A DNA stretch of 63,496 nt, the filler included, from Stramenopiles sp. TOSAG23-2 (lineage: Eukaryota), in NCBI GenBank assembly GCA_900128395.1. It is 21 parts of 21 records of this genome, joined end to end, with 100 filler letters (N's around TTAATTAATTAA, not from the genome) between each part and the next. Parts side by side here need not be neighbours in the genome. Positions count along the whole stretch, not along the records: positions 51,543 to 54,457 come from LT651464.1; 20 more parts are not named here. One strand, written 5' to 3'. This document shows positions 47,876 through 59,527 of the stretch, one piece after another. The position numbers and the translations under genes are program-made. The notes beneath the pieces are model-generated. The model was not told the origin of the DNA. It worked only from the letters and a program-made list of their open reading frames with translations, and searched no databases. How positions within the stretch are numbered: the stretch's first letter is position 1; each line of letters begins with the position of its first letter.

Positions 47876-49026
47876 GATGTTGAGGGTGTTTATATATTTC
47901 AATATATTTTGATGTCGGTTGTTGTTGTTGTTGTTTGTATAGATATATATATGTATATCTGTTACTTTGTTCCATTTGCTACACATACAGATATATATAT
48001 TACTATTATAGGATTTGGTGAGCGAAATTGTGGCTGGCCAATTGTGGAGTTGATGGATGTACTGTAACGAATTAGACCTGGTACTATACTATTTCCATGC
48101 TAGCTCTTAGCTTGATGAGTTTCATCTAATAAATTACGTAGTAATACCAGGTATATTATTGTAATGATGTGTGATGCAACTTTAAACTGTACAGGTTAAG
48201 GTACGAGGAGGTAGACAATAAATTTTATGAAGAAAGATTCATTTTCAAAGGTCTTCCAAGAGTTAGTCTAATACCACCAGTGGTAGGTGCTATGACCATG
48301 CTATTAATATCGCTAACTAATACTACTTTACCTGGTACTACTGCTGCTGCTAAAAAAAAATCACAAATTAAAATAAATTCAGGTTACCAGGTACAGGTTA
48401 GTTACGCATAATTTATTATTTTTAANNNNNNNNNNNNNNNNNNNNNNNNNNNNNNNNNNNNNNNNNNNNTTAATTAATTAANNNNNNNNNNNNNNNNNNN
48501 NNNNNNNNNNNNNNNNNNNNNNNNNGGGGTATTATTGTTTCTACAATTTGATATGTATTGTAAATATTGTCAATCTTCTAAAAAGAATATCTTTATATAC
48601 CACACCGGCTGTGCTATTTTTTGCCAGTTTGCAATTTTCAGCACCGTTTTCTCAGCACTATTTTTCTTTTTTTTTTCTCAAATTCGTAAATTTTATAGCA
48701 TTATAATAGCATACAATTACATATTATACAATACCATTATTTCGATTACCTTAGCTGGTATGATGACGTGTACGTAATGCTCAATAAATAAGAAGGCCAA
48801 GAACAAAACACATCATTATAGACGGTTAAAAATAGATAGATATCATAGGTTATACAGTCGTCTATACATATTGTGATTCATAACGATAAATATAGAACAA
48901 ATATATATAGTGTGGGGGTTTTTGATCATTTACGTATACCCATTTCCCTACCATTTACAAAAATAGTATAATAAGAATTTAATTTCTCACCGTAATTCAT
49001 CCATTAATTTTTTTTAATCTACTAGG

Positions 49027-51159
49027 ATGTCCAGAATTTCACATGCAAATAGTATTGATAGACAAATTGGTGAGCTTAACTTATCAGTATCTCCACCTAC
49101 AACAACCAATGTAAAATCGAATTTAGCAAGTAGAAGAAGGCAGAATGGCTCTCCATTGCGTGTAAATACAACTAAACCTGCGCCATCTGTAGCAACGCTG
49201 TCAAAAAGCACTAATGGCAATAAAAATGGAAGAATGAAGACTCCAGCAAAGATTATTACAGACGCATCTTTGCTTGACGCAAGAACTGGCAAACCGTTTT
49301 CTGTCAAGAACTTAGATACTGGTGAAACCATAAATATAGAAGAAATTGATAAGTTGATATCACAGGAATCGTTGACCACTTTCAGGACACCATATGCTAA
49401 AGATGCCCAAAAAGGAAAAGTATCGTCACCATTTGCAAATATATATGATAGGAACGAAGTTGATTTCATGAGAAGCTTAGAAGAAAACACATCACAAGCT
49501 GAGTTTATGAAAAATATGCGATTATGTGATAGTCCAAAAAAAGTTCAGCCTAGTGATTATTTTGATAAAATCGGTGGCAATTTTGGTGTAAAAATAGTTG
49601 GTAACAGATTAGTGCGAGATGAACGTGATGCAATTTATACTGTTTATATATTAGAGGTACGACATGATCAATATGATTTAGCATCGAAAACATGGAAAAT
49701 ATATCGTCGATATCGAGAATTTTATGCATTGGATGAATGTTTACGAAGTAAAGGATATAAAACACCATCGTTTCCACCGAAAAAAATTTTGGGAACTTTT
49801 GATCCACAATTCGTTGCTAAACGTCAAAGCTTGCTATCAGCATGGTTAGAGAATTTATTAAATTTACCAGCAATTGGGCAGCAACAAACGCAACAAAAAT
49901 CTTCTTTGAATCCACGGCATTCTGAAACATTACGTTATTTTATTAGTAAAGGTGCAAATGTGAAACCAAAAGGTATTGAAGAACATGATGATGATGGTCT
50001 ATTATATGATGCCAATGGGCTTAAAAGTAGCAATGGGAAGTCTTTACCGCTTCAAGTAAATGGACAACGTGTAACGTTGGACGACTTTCATTTAATTAAA
50101 GTGATTGGTAAGGGCTCGTTTGCTAAAGTTGTTTTAGTACGGCAAAAAAAAACTGAAAAATTATATGCAATGAAAATTCTAAAAAAAGATCATATCGTAA
50201 AACGAAAGCAAGTGGAACATACAAATACCGAACGTGCGGTATTACGTTTTACTCGACATCCATTCATTGTACAATTACATTATGCTTTCCAAACTAGCGA
50301 TAGATTATTTTTTGTTTTAGACTATTGCAGTGGTGGAGAGTTGTTTTTTCATTTAGGTAAGGCTGGAGAGTTTCGTGAGAGTGTGGCAAGGTATTATACT
50401 GCTGAATTGGTATTAGGATTGTCGCATTTACATAGTAAAGGGGTTATTTACCGCGATTTAAAACCAGAAAATGTATTATTGGATGCAGATGGTCATGTCA
50501 AGATAGCTGATTTTGGTTTGTCTAAAGTTTTAGATGATAAATTGCTAAAAAAAGGTCAGCAGATACAACGTGTTATAGATATTTCCATGGAAAAGGCGCA
50601 AACTTTTTCATTTTGTGGCACCCCAGAGTATCTAGCACCAGAAATTTTAACTCGTTCTGGGCATGGTGCCGGTGTTGATTGGTGGAGCTTAGGAATGTTA
50701 CTATATGAGATGCTTACAGGCCTGCCACCATGGTACACAAAAGATCGGCGTGAATTGTTCCGTCGTATACAAAGTGCTCCGTTGGTATTTCCAAGTCATG
50801 TTTCCAGCAGAGCAACTTCAATCATCCGTGCATTTTTAGAGCGCAATGTTAAGAAACGATTAGGTTCTAAAAAAATGAATGGTTTGGAAGGGATAAAAAG
50901 TCATGAATTTTTTGATGGAATGGATTGGGATAGGTTGTTTCAACGTAAAGTACGTACGCCATTTGCACCAAAAAAGTCTTCATTGGGAGAGACAGATGTT
51001 AGCAACTTTGATAAGACATTCACTCGTTTGCCTTTTGGTAGCGTAGCTGCTGATGTTAGGAGAGGGGAAAATGCATCTTCATCGCGTAAGAAAGATCAAT
51101 TTCATAAATTTTTCAAAAATTTTTCATACGAAGGTAGTCCGAGTAAATTGAGTGAATAA
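49027..51159 (+). CDS. PX-domain AGC kinase (SGK3/Akt-like)
   Basis: PX domain (YRRYREF, FPPKK, FVAKRQ), kinase (IGKGSFAKV, YRDLKPEN, DFG, FCGTPEYLAPE) and AGC tail with NFD and FKNFSY hydrophobic motif. Confidence 0.92.
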   Translation: MSRISHANSIDRQIGELNLSVSPPTTTNVKSNLASRRRQNGSPLRVNTTKPAPSVATLSKSTNGNKNGRMKTPAKIITDASLLDARTGKPFSVKNLDTGETINIEEIDKLISQESLTTFRTPYAKDAQKGKVSSPFANIYDRNEVDFMRSLEENTSQAEFMKNMRLCDSPKKVQPSDYFDKIGGNFGVKIVGNRLVRDERDAIYTVYILEVRHDQYDLASKTWKIYRRYREFYALDECLRSKGYKTPSFPPKKILGTFDPQFVAKRQSLLSAWLENLLNLPAIGQQQTQQKSSLNPRHSETLRYFISKGANVKPKGIEEHDDDGLLYDANGLKSSNGKSLPLQVNGQRVTLDDFHLIKVIGKGSFAKVVLVRQKKTEKLYAMKILKKDHIVKRKQVEHTNTERAVLRFTRHPFIVQLHYAFQTSDRLFFVLDYCSGGELFFHLGKAGEFRESVARYYTAELVLGLSHLHSKGVIYRDLKPENVLLDADGHVKIADFGLSKVLDDKLLKKGQQIQRVIDISMEKAQTFSFCGTPEYLAPEILTRSGHGAGVDWWSLGMLLYEMLTGLPPWYTKDRRELFRRIQSAPLVFPSHVSSRATSIIRAFLERNVKKRLGSKKMNGLEGIKSHEFFDGMDWDRLFQRKVRTPFAPKKSSLGETDVSNFDKTFTRLPFGSVAADVRRGENASSSRKKDQFHKFFKNFSYEGSPSKLSE

Positions 51160-51300: not shown

Positions 51301-51912
51301 ATATCAATAAAATATTATATATTTAATATATTATTAATAAAAACAATTAGTGCAAAAAGCGCGACGACGTACGTACGTTTTACTCTCCCCGCCAAAGCAT
51401 ATGAATGGAACAACTTTCGCGATATTTCACATTTAATAAATTNNNNNNNNNNNNNNNNNNNNNNNNNNNNNNNNNNNNNNNNNNNNTTAATTAATTAANN
51501 NNNNNNNNNNNNNNNNNNNNNNNNNNNNNNNNNNNNNNNNNNGTCGAAGTATTGCTGTACGATTAATATGTGGATTTGAAAAAGCAAACGAAGGGAAAAG
51601 TAAATTGTAAAAAGCGGTGTGTGTGCGTTTTGTCATTTTTTTAAAAAAAGTGCGAGAGAGAGTTGCGTGCGTGTTTAAAAATAATGAGAACTTTGTAAAA
51701 GTATGAAATATATGGAACTCTTTTATAAATTTTTAAAATATTAAATCTCTTGTAATTTAAAATATTCACACACAATTATTTTACAAAGAGTAGATAAAAA
51801 AATATATGCCACGTATTATACAGCGTAGATGTAACCGTTGCGCTGCTTTTTATATTTTTGATTTAAGAGTACTCGTATTTTTATTTCTCATTCCTTTTAA
51901 AAGTAAAATATT

Positions 51913-53000
51913 TTATGCCTCGCACCCCTTCCCATTCTCACGCTCAATTTGACAAATTAAATCAGCAACTACCATGACAACTTGAAAATTAACTTGTTGC
52001 AACTCTTCAATTTGTTCTTTTTGCTTTACAATTTCATTTCCCATATGATCAATCTTATCACGTAATTCATCTTCCGTTTTTTCAGCAGCATCTAATGACA
52101 TTTTAATATGTTTAAAATTTTTATTTTTTGTTTGTTGTGCCATGCTTCTCCATGCATGAAATGTTTCCCGATATTTTTTTCTACGTTTCATTTCCGCAAA
52201 TAAATTTGAAATGTTTTCATTTTTATCTTTATCATCTATTGTTAAATATTTCCATTGAAGGATTCAACATTATCATCATTAGCATCAGGATTAGTATTAT
52301 TTTCTAAAATGTTTAAATAACCTTCCGTCCATTCGTTTAATCCATTTGATAATACTGAATTGGATGATGGACAAGCATCTAGAGATGCCATTTCAGTAAT
52401 ATGCTGACGTCCTACTTTTTGTATCAATGCTTTTGTTAATGCGCGTGTTTGCTCTGCAGTACTTCTTGGTCTTTGCCTTGTACTTGGACGAAATGACGCA
52501 TTATTATTATTAATTTTATTGTTTGGTAATATACCACTTGTGACATTGTAAATATTTTTATTAATATAATTTGTGACATTTTGATATGACGAATTTGTAT
52601 ATATATTACTTTTCCTTGTTCCATTTCTTCTTTTTATTGGAAATATAATGGATGATCCACCACTATTTATTGAACCTCTAATGCCAGTCATTGTTGTTGA
52701 TGGGCGTACATTATTGTTGTTGTTGTTGTTGTTGTTAGACGGTGGTTGGTTGTTTCTTGCCATCATTGTTCCTAGTGTCATCATTCGCTGTCTACTGTTT
52801 CTTACATTCTTGAAATTAAAATTAGATGTTGTATTTGGTCTTCTTGGTTGTTGTTGCTTCATTAAATCAAAATCTACCATTCGATTATCATTTAATACTT
52901 TTTTTCGCATGGATGATTTTTTATATGGTGACAGTAGCTCATCAACGGTGGTTAAAAATTTTCGTCTTACTGATCGATACCGTCCTATTTTATATGTCAA
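51913..53000 (-). CDS. Hypothetical protein with RPxT repeats and C-terminal coiled coil; probably one gene frameshifted near 52250
   Basis: ORFs 52242-53000 and 51913-52191 are bridged by the alternate frame KYLTIDDKDKNENISNLFAEMKRR. Confidence 0.5.
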
Positions 53001-53427
53001 TTATTTGAATTCACCAAATGAATTGGTCATTATCGAACGACCGTGGGTAAAGATATTGCAAGAATTTACAAATCCAGTGAAATTGAAACGGTATGGTGCA
53101 GAATAGAAACGGAGTGAGTACAACAGTACGATGTATGCTATCATATCATCCGGCTTTGATTTCAGTGTGAGATAGATATTAATATTGGCTCATGGCTCAG
53201 TTACTTTATGTGCTGGAGAGTATTCGTAGTATAATTACCATTGAGTAGAAATAAAAAATTTAACATATATACAGTATATGATAGTACTTATAAATAATAT
53301 TGTATATGTACTCGTACACATGTCTTTATAAAATATTTGTATCATCATATATCATATTTACAGACGCTCGTCGTATCATAGTGATATGATATGATTCGTA
53401 TACTCTCTGTTTACTATCAGTATCATG

Positions 53428-54457
53428 TTAGCGTGGTATCTGTACGGTGCCACTTTTCCCTTTTCTAAGGTCACCGTGTCCAGTCTTAGAGATTACATTG
53501 CCCTTTTCATCAAGTACAACTACAAAGGCTCCATAACCAGACTGTTCTCTATGGAACTCCACGGTACCACCCGCAATAACTGGCGCAATGATCTCAGCAC
53601 CCTCAGCACTGGGACCAAATCTACCTTTGGCATCATTCTTGAGTGGTATGTAATAATCCATACTTCTCCATCCACCTCTAGGTGCATGAGCCCCAAACAC
53701 TCTCCTCAGTAGAGATGCCTTCTGACTGTAAGATGCGTTAGGATCATAGACCAAACCAGATACTGCTGAATTAGAGAATTCAACCACTCTTCCCTGTTTA
53801 GCATAAGCAACAGCCATTGAATCAACCATAGACACTGCCTTTTCCATAGGTATGTCAGCTTTAATCTTAGTATCAATATGATATTCAGAACTACCACCAA
53901 TATACTGACGAGGACCAGTAACTAGACCAGTATTATATGCTCTATGTTCTGGTGTACCCTCTGTGCCACCACCGTTATTATTTGATGATTCATTGGATAA
54001 AGTGGGTTCTGGCGTATTTTTTGGGCTTGTATCCTCACCACCATTTTTGTTATTGGGTGAAGTGGGTTCTGGCGTATTTTTTGGAGTTGTATCCTCACTA
54101 ATGGATGATCCTGTATTGTGCAGTACCTGCTGTTCAAGGTGATCTCTAGTTGTATCAATTGCAGTATGGACTTTGTCCAAGTTGCTTCGTGTTCCTTTGA
54201 CCAAGTAGTTTTTAGTAGTATCAATTACAGCACCGACTTTGCCAATGTTGCTTCGTGTTCCTTGTACAATGTAGTTTTTAGTCGTATCAATTGCAGTATG
54301 GACTTTGTCCAAGTTGTTTCGTGTTCCTTTTACAATGTAGTTTTTAGTCGTATCAATTGCAGTATGGACTTTGTCCAAGTTGCTTCGTGTTCCTTTTACA
54401 AAGTAGTTTTTAGTCGTATCAATTGCAGTATGGACTTTGTCCAAGTTGTTTCGTGTT
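53428..54457 (-). CDS. Protein with tandem 22-aa amphipathic repeats, Pro/Thr linker and C-terminal M23-peptidase-like domain (5' partial)
   Basis: LDKVHTAIDTTKNYIVKGTRNN repeats, EDTxPKNTPEPT x2, and a C-terminal domain with AH...MDYY, AEIIAP, GYGAFVVVLD and KTGHGD. Confidence 0.75.
54150..54457 (-). repeat. Coding 66-bp tandem repeat (at least 4.5 copies, truncated by the contig end)
   Basis: Unit gtcgtatcaattgcagtatggactttgtccaagttgtttcgtgttccttttacaatgtagttttta. Confidence 0.92.
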
Positions 54458-54611
54458 NNNNNNNNNNNNNNNNNNNNNNNNNNNNNNNNNNNNNNNNNNN
54501 NTTAATTAATTAANNNNNNNNNNNNNNNNNNNNNNNNNNNNNNNNNNNNNNNNNNNNATATATACTCGTATATTTATTTTATCATAAATATTCATATAAA
54601 AAAAACATTAT

Positions 54612-55568
54612 TTATCGAAACACATCATCTACTTCATCTTTTTCCATTGTAATCGTTTCCTGCCTTACTTTACGTAATTCTTTTTGTTCAACACGACTAG
54701 CATAAACACCACCTTTACGTTTATGTTCAGCCGCACGTGCTAGATTTGGTGAGATATATTCTTCATTCATGTATAATGTTTCCCCTGTAAAACTACCGCT
54801 AAATATTCTTATAGGTTGCAAAACAAATCGTGGTCCAATCTCTACTAATTTATTTGTCACCACACCTTTTTTCACATCATTTGCTAATTGTTTTTCATTT
54901 AAATCACTTTCAACAACTTGATAATTACGAAACCATATACGACCATCTAAAATACTAAAATTTAATACATGATCAACAAATGGTTTGCTTTTTGGATGTC
55001 CAAGTGGCGTACCAAAAATGGAGGTAAATAATTCTTTTAATACTTTCAAATGTGGTTCTTTATCAAATGCAGTATCAAATGATAAAATTGGCCTGGAACC
55101 TTTTAAACAATTTCCAGTTAAACGTAACTCTTCCATAGTATGTACATTTTGTACTAAAAATTTCACCGATGGGCCAAATGGTGTTGCGCTTGCCCATAAA
55201 TATAAATCTTTTCGCTTCCTAAATTCAAAAAACAGCGCCGTATTGCAGCTTTTCATTTCAGCAATCTCATTAATAGCAGTTAAATCACGTTTTGTATCTA
55301 GTTTTACATCTTTTTTATGATGTGGTAATAATGCACGTATATCTCCCATTAAATGGCGATAAGATGCAACTGCTCCACGTGAACATAAAACTAAACAACG
55401 TTGCTTGTTTACATATTTTGTGGAGTATGGTCCTTCATTTTTTGCTTTTTTCGTATCAGTGGGGGAGGAGGAAGAAGATGATGAAGAAGAGGAGGATGTT
55501 TTACGTTTTTTATTTTTCGTCATGGTAGTTGTCGTTGTTGATACTTCCTCTTCTTTTTCTTGATCCAT
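54612..55568 (-). CDS. BRX1: Ribosome biogenesis protein BRX1 (Brix domain)
   Basis: YRHLMGDIRALLPHHKKD, GPSVKFLVQNVHTMEELRLTGNCLKGSRPILSFD, HPKSKPFVDHV, LVEIGPRFVL and YISPN. Confidence 0.96.
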   Translation of the reverse strand: MDQEKEEEVSTTTTTMTKNKKRKTSSSSSSSSSSSPTDTKKAKNEGPYSTKYVNKQRCLVLCSRGAVASYRHLMGDIRALLPHHKKDVKLDTKRDLTAINEIAEMKSCNTALFFEFRKRKDLYLWASATPFGPSVKFLVQNVHTMEELRLTGNCLKGSRPILSFDTAFDKEPHLKVLKELFTSIFGTPLGHPKSKPFVDHVLNFSILDGRIWFRNYQVVESDLNEKQLANDVKKGVVTNKLVEIGPRFVLQPIRIFSGSFTGETLYMNEEYISPNLARAAEHKRKGGVYASRVEQKELRKVRQETITMEKDEVDDVFR

Positions 55569-56422
55569 TTTTGTTGTTGTTGTTGTTGTTGTATTATTAT
55601 TATATAAAAGGAAGTTGATGGTTTTATTTTAGGGATGGGGAGAACAATTAATTATCAAAAGTTAAACAAACAATAATATGTGTTGTATTATTATTATTAT
55701 TATTATTGAATTAAAAGTATGTTAACAATGATGAACACTGTAACATAGACGACATCTTTCCATGAGAAAATAAATTATACTATGCATGTATATATATTTA
55801 CATGGCCAGAAATTTAGTAATTTTTAGAGTAGTTGTAAAAAAAGAGAGAAAATGTAGAGCTGATGATAGGGCGATAGAGCCGATTACTCTACAGCGTAGT
55901 ACAGCGTAGACGGAGCTACGATTAAAATCAGGCGGCATCATAATCATCCATAAAGTACGCTTTTCGTGCAACGTATTTTAAGGGCAAATGATCAAATGAC
56001 ACAAACCTGACAATAATTTATACTTGAATTGGAAATTAGAATATCAAAAAAATAATACTCATCTTCCTATACTATTGTATTTAAGGATGCTTGAAAGGGA
56101 ATAGCTGTACTATGTCCATGTTGTACGGTTGTACGTATAATAATAGAGTGCTGATTCTTTCAAGTCAAAGCCCTAAAAGGCAAATAGCTCCCAGCCCAGA
56201 GCTCAGCAGCTACATGTACCTATGTACCTGGTAAATTATAATGATGAAGAATAATCCGAGAGAAATAGAAGAAGAAAGAGCAGAGAACTATTATACGTAT
56301 TATTATTACAAAAAAAATTACAATTCAAAAAAATTATTATATAGTCATCTATAAAAAAGAAAACATTGATGTAGCAATAAAAGTTAGAGAAACTAATTTG
56401 CAATCGATGAAATAAGTAGACC

Positions 56423-57946: not shown

Positions 57947-59527
57947 TTACTGTCGTAAATATAAAAAAACTGCGAGGACGAGGGAGATTACCAACCGATA
58001 TGGCAACTCTCCTATTTGGCATATTATCCGCTTATAAATTACATCTATCGTTGTTTTCGTATTTTGTTCCTTCACTGGCTCTAGAACTAGAAAATCGCTG
58101 CACTCGTCTTTAATACTAAGGATATATTTGTATCCCTCCTTATTATCCGCTTCTACGTGTGTATAATCGCAATGTATCGTTCCCCAAATTTGCTGATTTA
58201 CCAACGATGCTGGGACTAACGTTGTTTGATGAACCGCTGTGGTTTTCCCTTTCTTACAATGGATGCATGTATCAATAAATTCCTTGATATCTTTTCTCAT
58301 GCCCCTCCAGTAAAAATTTTTACTAACCTGCTCGTAAGTCGGCTCCAACGACTGATGTGCTACTTGTAGCTCATGGTGGTAGTATGATATCAGATCGTCT
58401 TGCAGTTGAGCTGGTACTACTATCGCTGGTGGTTTGCGCTCTAACCGATTTTGTGTTCTGCCTTTTTCTAGTCGAATTATCGCCGTATGTACCAGTAGGC
58501 CCTTATTGTCTATTTCAAACCTCCTTGTCCACCTGTTGTTCTTTCCCTCCTTAATTTGTTCGATTATTTTGCCTGTTAGGGAATCTGTCCTCTGGGCTGC
58601 TTTCATTTTTGCTACCGTGAACTTCCTTGGAATTCGATATGTTACTGTGGTTTTCACTCCGTTGACTTGCTTCCCTGTCTTGGATTTCACTTCTTCCGCT
58701 TTTAGCGCCATTACCTTAATATTTGATGAGTTTAAGGATGTTTCTTCCTTTGACCATTTTGCCGGTTTTGTCTTCCAGTAGGTTATTGGAATTTCCGATT
58801 TACCGGTTTTATGATATACGTCAACTAAATTTAAGTCATCGCTATAAAGGTTAATTTCAAAAGTTTTATATACTCGCTGTTGGTGATTATGCTTCACCCC
58901 AACGTGTCCGTTTACAAATTTCGTTATTGCCGCCGTTACTGATGCTTTCGCTGTGCCCTCCGGAATTCTAGACATGTGATCTGCATCTGTATGTTTCGCC
59001 CCCGCTCTGTGGCTTAATATGATGTTGTATTCACTTATTCGACATGCCCATCGAATCATACGTCGCTTATGTTTTACGTACTGATTCAGTCGCAACAAGT
59101 TTGCATGATCTGTTACGACGTATAGCTTGTCGCCCAAAAAATGCCTCCACTTTTCTAATGCCCATAACAATGCTAAGCATTCCAGCTCCCGCGCATCGTA
59201 ATTTTTCTCTGCTGGGCTAAGTGCTCGACTCGCATACCATACAACATGTAGCTTCCCGTCTTTTCCTTTTTGGTTTAAAGTTGCACCCAGACCATGATAT
59301 ATCTCTTTTACCCCTCCTTCCGGATCCCCACTCCCGGTTTCTTTAAACTGAGTATCCTGATTATTTGCTTTGGCTTTTCCTCCACACCATACTTTGCCTG
59401 CCCATATGCCCTCTGCATATCCGTCATTGTTATTTTTTGAATTGTTTTTCTTGTATTGTTGTTTGTGTTTTCTTTTTCTTTTTATTTCTTGTCCTTTTGT
59501 TTTGCGCGTTGATGCGCTTCCTAGTCA
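57947..59527 (-). mobile_element. Ty3/Gypsy LTR-retrotransposon pol remnant: RNase H (partial), HHCC zinc finger, truncated integrase core
   Basis: HGLGATLNQ..VWYASRALSPAEKNYDARELECLALLWALEKWRHFL, VTDHANL, RWACRISEY, HRAGAKHTDADHMSR, HH..AH..FYWRGMRKDIKEFIDTCIHC, IHCDY and YKYILSIKD. RNase H before integrase is Gypsy order. Confidence 0.92.

Follow-up and report, generated by a model that had tools for sequence, protein, structure and literature searches.

A repeat-rich host gene ends in a conserved domain

The window analyzed, a stretch of 63,496 nt from Stramenopiles sp. TOSAG23-2, strings together contigs of ~2.9 kb with N44-TTAATTAATTAA-N44 spacers between them. The contig of interest, at window positions 51543-54457, is contig C6138 of G000, the contig set of the source genome. 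Its minus strand holds an open reading frame (P0001; Table 1) with a TAA stop at 53428, which is still open at the contig edge and yields 342 aa: 4.7 repeats of 22 aa, followed by a Pro/Thr/Asn linker of ~65 aa and a domain of ~170 aa. Reading of the frame and a tandem-repeat search bore out this arrangement, which a first-pass annotation of the sequence had described, and all the motifs quoted there were found in the translation. Other contigs of the window contain, among positions 49018-51159 (+), 54612-55628 (-) and 57947-59524 (-), a PX-domain protein kinase, a Brix gene and, by eye, an RNase H/integrase-like frame of an LTR retrotransposon.

Table 1. Position of the features of the repeat gene and of its C-terminal domain (residues in domain numbering)
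Feature	Position in window	Strand	Basis or remark
3' part of host gene, P0001, 342 codons plus stop	53428..54456	-	5' end cut by contig edge; bridged by contigs of X2-X5
Tandem 66-nt/22-aa (2x11) repeats, host-derived, 4.7 copies	54147..54457	-	TRF, 90% matches
Pro/Thr/Asn linker with duplicated 12-residue unit, ending near the NNNGGG junction	53950..54146	-	Common to P0212
Cyanophage-derived domain	53434..53942	-	blastn and codon alignment versus phage locus L006
H24-x-D26, proposed equivalent of M23 HxH at the N-terminus, with Asp as third metal ligand	53872..53880	-	Global profile alignment
Helical insert, residues 35-86, proposed to join the permuted halves	53692..53847	-	AF2 helices 35-51 and 74-86
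H88..D98, proposed H(x)nD metal-binding motif	53656..53688	-	Conservation
H158 of TGHGD, proposed equivalent of LytM His260	53476..53478	-	219/219; on the His of YaHL in global profile alignment, E 0.0013
Host-type TACTCGTA motif	53309..53316	+	~110 nt downstream of the stop

The motif TACTCGTA is enriched ~15-fold in the window (16 matches versus a mean of 1.06 in shuffled sequences, with 0 of 100 shuffles reaching 16), and no copies were found in the six phage loci counted. C6138 carries a second copy at 51870, likewise downstream of the stop; these two copies on the same contig uphold the earlier claim of host-type flanks. A further copy, at 54563, lies on the next, unrelated contig. The flank at 53119-53263 also resembles dispersed sequence on five other G000 contigs (72-83%). 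Base composition was discarded as a test of origin, since GC and GC3 (0.435/0.289 for the domain, 0.432/0.29 for the phage and 0.34-0.39/0.18-0.29 for host genes) do not separate host from phage.

The fusion recurs in independent samples

Part of the stretch is held by 20 of the 24 sequencing runs listed, from 12 studies. We compared assembled contigs, rather than reads, of four runs (X2 to X5; four studies, two of them RNA), leaving out the possible source run. Single contigs span 53176-54148 in X3 (one difference), 53378-54181 in the RNA run X4 (two differences), which covers the flanks too, and 53421-54181 in the oligo-dT RNA run X5 (two differences); those of X2 span 53798-54181 and 53018-53535 with no differences. 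The linker-domain junction is bridged in all four compared runs, with 0-2 differences, and the passage from the stop into the 3' flank is bridged by at least 31 letters in three of them.

Because the contigs of all four compared runs bridge the linker-domain junction, the fusion is real, with the domain integrated in a host gene, and not a chimera. The first-pass annotation had worried about contaminant phage DNA chimerically joined to the host contig, which the recurrence of the same junction contradicts. An assembly or amplification product of host DNA and DNA from ingested phages might be suspected because the assembly is fragmented and the middle of the contig (~52300-52930) is almost without cover in the four runs, X3 lacking 52211-53175; we nevertheless consider it largely refuted and give it hardly any credence, as four independent runs share the junction, no phage sequence was found outside the domain and a second eukaryotic version exists (see below). 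The 965-bp segment at 52211-53175, which the X3 contig skips and both ends of which are crossed by X2 contigs, holds a low-complexity frame of 252 codons (52242-53000, minus strand), and pieces of X3 and X5 depart from the stretch at 52933 with an identical loose end. This discrepancy represents either a structural variant or a local misassembly. Missing cover among assembled contigs does not prove that a segment is lacking.

The gene may be transcribed. Contigs from the two RNA runs end 7 and 50 nt beyond the stop, although such assembled contigs give neither strand nor level and the libraries may hold DNA.

The C-terminal domain resembles a cyanophage baseplate-locus protein

A search with the domain matched 63 of 1,473 candidates among longer proteins and gave 194 cluster representatives at E <= 0.001. 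The best long match, P0003, shows 82% amino acid identity to the domain, and its counterpart is the C-terminal domain of a long protein from the baseplate locus of T4-like cyanophages; both the cyanophage resemblance noted in the first-pass annotation and its expectation of cyanophage best matches in a protein search were thus confirmed. DNA similarity to phage locus L006 is limited to 53434-53942 (78-79% over 510 nt), and comparison with L006 revealed no phage sequence outside the domain; divergence between domain and phage amounts to dN 0.10 and dS 1.10. According to its sequence and to the annotated phage S-WAM2, L006 has the order tail-tube-like gene, gp26-like hub, two long proteins, hub and spike, with the donor gene sitting between the gp26-like hub and the hub/spike genes, and its gp26 is 73% identical to that of Synechococcus myophages. 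Among cultured phages, two of 50,697 records matched, both from S-WAM2 (47%), and a close-relative scan of prokaryote genomes yielded no close cellular homologue among 611 candidate stretches.

The EukProt protein P0066 carries a domain 78% identical to that of the window, an acidic N-terminal part of non-phage type and a similar end point, and both proteins retain all five conserved residues described below. We placed the domain in a midpoint-rooted tree of 76 rows, made up of the 45 domains closest to it out of 219, one in six of the others and two fragments. One clade (100/99) unites the query with P0066 and with P0156 and P0194, the fragments, whose eukaryotic label is a guess; it is sister to the P0003 cluster (98/94) and lies deep among the phage rows. 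Additionally, the oligo-dT run X5 contains a second, 89%-identical piece, which agrees with P0066 at seven of seven amino acid changes, these being the ones computable from 13 of the 18 differences listed. As judged by these comparisons, the ancestry of the domain is that of a phage, a virus of cyanobacteria. Its nesting among phage rows under a midpoint root, together with the linkage to host sequence in four of four runs, agrees with the horizontal acquisition that had been proposed.

Among 227 full-cover matches, the domain family shows three layouts: in 71 small proteins the domain is N-terminal, 29 proteins are longer than 1,500 aa and 127 are of other kinds. All four proteins tested from the 29 carry TMP_3. 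Homologues of the domain adjoin lysozyme, amidase and glucosaminidase domains, and are also found within tape-measure proteins.

The domain is likely a permuted relative of M23 peptidases

We counted residue conservation over 219 distinct homologues with full cover. H24, D26 and H158 are each present in 219/219 and D98 in 218/219, while the column of H88 contains 170 His and 49 gaps; in a recount, a His stands 8-16 residues ahead of the Asp in 218 of 219. As described in the available part of a review (PMC9662197), M23 enzymes contain H(x)nD, HxH and a His located ~30 residues before HxH (His260 in LytM), and by comparison with that text the five conserved His/Asp residues correspond to the five M23 active-site residues. 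The domain contains no HxH motif, having instead an invariant HxD (219/219) that is N-terminal to H(x)nD; the register that sets H24-x-D26 on HxH comes from the global profile alignment alone and is not significant (E 0.12). Consequently, one part of the H...D site described in the first-pass annotation stands, as the H-I-D of YHID belongs to the conserved site, but its reading of the terminal GHGD as the HxH motif was wrong.

A canonical M23 peptidase was rejected, because the Pfam score is below the cut-off, the motif order is permuted and HxD replaces HxH. The domain scored 13.3 bits with PF01551, not reaching the cut-off of 28.7, and there were no M23 matches at E <= 0.01 among 74 members of the family. 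We compared it with a profile of 77 canonical M23 domains, 76 of them out of 80 loci and one from P0178. In hhalign, residues 117-152 matched the first half of this profile (E 8e-5) and residues 6-13 its late STGP segment (E 1.2e-3, eight columns), versus E 0.027-0.28 for controls with the middle piece and reversed sequences; no match to the profile was found in the helical insert. Likewise, an HMM of the C-terminal half matched the first half of 47/77 canonical domains versus 3/77 shuffled ones, and that of the N-terminal piece matched the last part of 9/77 versus 0/77.

AF2 modeled the domain with a pLDDT of 96.8, and a fragment comprising residues 84-173 with 84.9. In VIA comparisons, the whole domain retrieved 10 named M23/LytM chains in the top 50 rows (Z 2.9-3.4), whereas with residues 84-173 M23/LytM structures made up 9 of the 12 rows with at least 65 aligned residues (Z 2.9-3.5), beta-propellers being higher by Z; no row reached Z 5, and unrelated folds tied with or outranked M23. 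The aligned range of Csd3 (240-321) includes His259 and His306 and ends before His341, as numbered in the accessible text of PMC4356371, which is as permutation predicts. Foldseek found no PDB match at E <= 0.001 with either model, a result that does not exclude the fold, and two significant rows in the viral library, S-WAM2 and an S-T4 'putative muramidase'. Neither the domain nor its profile had a match below E 0.28 among PDB sequences; PHROGs gave only matches at E >= 0.02 and Atlas no usable match for the domain.

Taken together, the five residues and the profile halves and structure rows, which are weak matches in themselves, point with good confidence to a circularly permuted M23-like domain having HxD for HxH, outside the canonical members; the kinship with M23 proposed in the first-pass annotation is thereby supported, but membership in the canonical family is not. 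It is unlikely that the domain is another metal-dependent enzyme or a binding module, its M23 likeness coming from a shared arrangement of beta-sheets. Such a module would account for Z values of up to 3.5 with named M23 structures, the score under the Pfam cut-off, the HxD motif and the outcome with Atlas, but it is opposed by five of five conserved residues mapping to M23, by halves that match M23 in swapped order above shuffled controls and by the position of the domain, which in virion proteins fills the hydrolase slot and in protein P0212 (see below) gives way to NlpC/P60.

Canonical M23 domains also occur in this material. In P0178 a canonical M23 domain stands next to the permuted one, and three canonical domains above the Pfam cut-off are found on G000 contigs C1292, C1244 and C4916 (L024-L026). 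These three lie in host-like frames that are AT-rich and contain poly-Asn, and have no relation to the permuted domain. No canonical M23 was found in the five phage records carrying the domain, four of which are fragments.

The repeats belong to a probable secreted scaffold

Amphipathic repeats of 11 residues are known in several proteins, perilipin-4 among them. The hydrophobic moment of the window repeats peaks at 98.5 degrees, the 11/3 period, with a value of 0.365 that is borderline against shuffled units (p 0.068); the helical analysis suggested in the first-pass annotation thus gave the expected peak, at a borderline p of about 0.07, and the repeats probably form an 11/3 amphipathic helix. 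They would share this helical periodicity with perilipin-4, as they do a composition rich in Thr, Lys, Gly and Val, but differ in the 22-aa unit, in giving no Pfam match and in belonging to a probably secreted protein, so that they would at best work alike. No Pfam perilipin family matched the available 342 aa at E <= 1, nor C4847 (see below) at E <= 0.01, and the homology implied by the earlier description as perilipin-like is not supported.

The only other match in G000 is contig C4847, with an open frame of 1,356 codons and 22-mers at 50% identity. Its 3' end breaks inside another repeat, with 37 nt common to three window repeats (up to 92%), and therefore C4847 may well, with moderate confidence, be the 5' part of the window gene. 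No contig of G000 bridges C4847 and C6138. A search for full-length relatives found none among 7,996 scored candidates, with one match, P0252.

Contigs C2406, C621, C2116 and C1954 hold relatives of C4847. As the 5' end of the window gene is missing, a signal peptide can only be borrowed from these relatives, whose link to C6138 is unproven: by eye, C2406 and C621 have hydrophobic N-termini. C4847 and its relatives contain a Gly/Ala-rich hydrophobic hairpin, also seen by eye, and in one relative a lipase domain follows the shared Gly-rich hairpin. These five contigs (L003, L107-L109 and L018) define a family of giant, mostly Pfam-less proteins with Cys-rich, coiled-coil and Gly-hairpin modules and variable C-termini (a Cys-rich tail or a lipase).

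Long uninterrupted frames in this family would fit a scaffold from a giant virus, or from an endogenous viral element in the assembly, instead of a protist gene. We consider this very improbable in view of the flank, with its host motif TACTCGTA and dispersed host-like sequence, of a relative located on a 64.5-kb contig and of a search of viral contigs with P0212, in which none of 22 candidate stretches was a relative.

A second cassette at the same junction

A whole-protein search identified P0212, a metagenomic protein for which there is a single record, on a contig of 1,655 bp whose origin is unverified. Its repeats are 70% identical to those of the window over 148 columns, and its linker matches up to the NNNGGG junction, where an NlpC/P60-type domain begins (Pfam E 4e-4, below the cut-off; Cys and His present by eye). 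P0001 and P0212 are accordingly, as read from their alignment, the same scaffold with a different C-terminal enzyme at one junction, the second form being represented by one record. The NlpC/P60 domain is 69-70% identical to four viral loci (4 of 13 candidates), with 105 of 153 residues identical to phage L124, and in the phage it sits in the first long protein after the gp26-like hub, in the same locus as the donor of the window domain. The gp26 of this donor locus is closest to Synechococcus myophages (62%), and the matches of the domain in cultured phages are S-CREM2 gp208 and S-CREM1 gp48. P0212 ends directly after the domain, like the window gene, whereas the phage protein continues. No NlpC/P60 cassette was found in the incomplete G000 assembly. 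P0212 also has, by eye, a six-cysteine module (residues ~175-215) between two linker copies, which is missing from the window gene and resembles the Cys-rich repeats placed ahead of the wall peptidases of rusticalin-like proteins.

These observations suggest repeated borrowing of viral wall enzymes at the same spot. The phage DNA might instead have inserted recently, and without selective effect, into a repeat gene that tolerates it. This would agree with the 79% nucleotide identity to phage, and dN/dS against the phage reflects selection on the phage branch as well, with few strain variants available; we nonetheless judge it quite improbable. The insertion is in frame, with limits at the domain edges; the two eukaryotic versions retain all five residues at 78% identity; both strain variants inside the domain are synonymous and both outside are not, among four variants only; and a second, independent capture occupies the same junction.

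Proposed function of the captured domains

We favor, with moderate confidence, a protist scaffold that carries captured cyanophage wall hydrolases in an exchangeable slot, the window domain being a permuted M23 zinc endopeptidase, and uses them on bacterial prey. A protist gene for a probably long, secreted and repeat-rich protein would have acquired the wall-hydrolase module from a virion protein of a T4-like cyanophage and carry it as the last domain. H88, D98 and D26 would coordinate the metal and H24 and H158 activate water, allowing the module to cleave peptidoglycan cross-links. With the 22-aa amphipathic repeats and the flexible linker, the protein may display it at a membrane, where it would help to open bacteria that have been engulfed or touched, picocyanobacteria being plausible targets. 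The slot at the C-terminus would be exchangeable, as suggested by the cyanophage NlpC/P60 hydrolase in P0212.

The presence of two wall-hydrolase-type domains from one cyanophage locus at one host junction, with their catalytic residues kept, argues for selection for attacking bacterial walls. Lysis of prey is what we infer from it, and P0212 strengthens this reading. The transfer could be real and the enzyme an active wall hydrolase, yet serve in defence against bacterial parasites or symbionts, or be stored on lipid bodies, in place of prey digestion. Bivalve phage lysozymes, described in the available text of PMC5303276 as antibacterial immune proteins, favor defence, and the hydrophobic hairpin of C4847 and its relatives suits an attack protein better than a digestive enzyme; both donors are, however, of cyanophage type, which suggests that the protist regularly meets cyanobacteria and their phages, as a grazer would, and we hold such alternative uses to be unlikely, if worth keeping in mind. 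More speculatively, and with low confidence, the gene might belong to a polymorphic-lysin system, in which a giant secreted scaffold made of a membrane-inserting hairpin, amphipathic repeats and a linker would have its slot repeatedly and recently refilled from one cyanophage locus, matched to the prey, with an undescribed permuted M23 bearing an Asp-type metal site.

Marine picocyanobacteria are killed mainly by grazers and by phages, two causes of death that are usually handled separately. The gene suggests that a protist took the phage's own entry enzymes at least twice, recently enough for 69-82% identity to persist, and provides named, small and expressible candidates for the way picoplankton grazers breach cyanobacterial walls. 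In addition, about 200 phage domains unnamed in Pfam and PHROGs may be permuted M23 domains with an unusual metal site.

Comparison with known systems

Transfer of lysins from phages to eukaryotes already has precedent. One instance is reportedly provided by a preprint on NlpC/P60 proteins of Trichomonas. For marine heterotrophic protists, lysozymes and transfers from prokaryotes have been reported in PMC5778133, where the word 'phage' is absent from the main text in its accessible part. In the open-access literature we found no description of the gene, of a permuted M23 family, of a swapped cassette or of protist capture of a cyanophage lysin, although transfer tables in supplements could list the gene; 'permut' occurs zero times in the available part of the M23 review PMC9662197.

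M23 zinc endopeptidases of the LytM/lysostaphin type (PF01551; PDB 2B0P, 4RNY and 6SMK) have five conserved His/Asp residues, as the window domain does. Further likeness lies in the AP...GG.V....GYG.F.V strands and, at low Z, in a structural alignment that covers the first two-thirds of the M23 fold, and M23 enzymes are known virion-associated lysins. In the window domain the motif order is permuted, HxD stands for HxH, some 50 residues form a helical insert, the H..D spacer is longer (8-16 residues) and the score stays below the Pfam cut-off.

The long virion proteins of the Kyanoviridae baseplate locus (S-WAM2 AOV61704, S-CREM2 gp208/gp209 and S-CREM1 gp47/gp48) represent the donor locus of both domains, and S-CREM2 gp208/gp209 were detected in virions according to the available text of PMC10665884. 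Unlike these proteins, the window gene took only the hydrolase-type domain, as the end of a eukaryotic repeat protein. The peptidase domain (736-899) of the hub gp15 from cyanophage A-1(L) (PDB 8KEA), which lyses Anabaena cells (PMC10966104, in the part available), aligned over 99 residues in VIA (Z 4.1, rmsd 3.6), the best row in a tie with an unrelated ribosomal protein; it differs in being another virion protein, with 8% identity and a Z in the range of chance arrangements.

The phage lysozymes of bivalves offer a parallel for the transfer of a wall hydrolase from phages to eukaryotes with later fusion to host genes, as here, but involve an animal host and a glycosidase, and the accessible text of PMC5303276 reports no swapped cassettes from a single locus. 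Rusticalin, as presented in the available part of PMC6339383, joins Cys-rich host repeats to a C-terminal phage-like wall peptidase, an arrangement comparable by eye to P0212 with its six-Cys linker module; it differs in being an L-Ala-D-Glu peptidase of animals that arose in a single ancient event.
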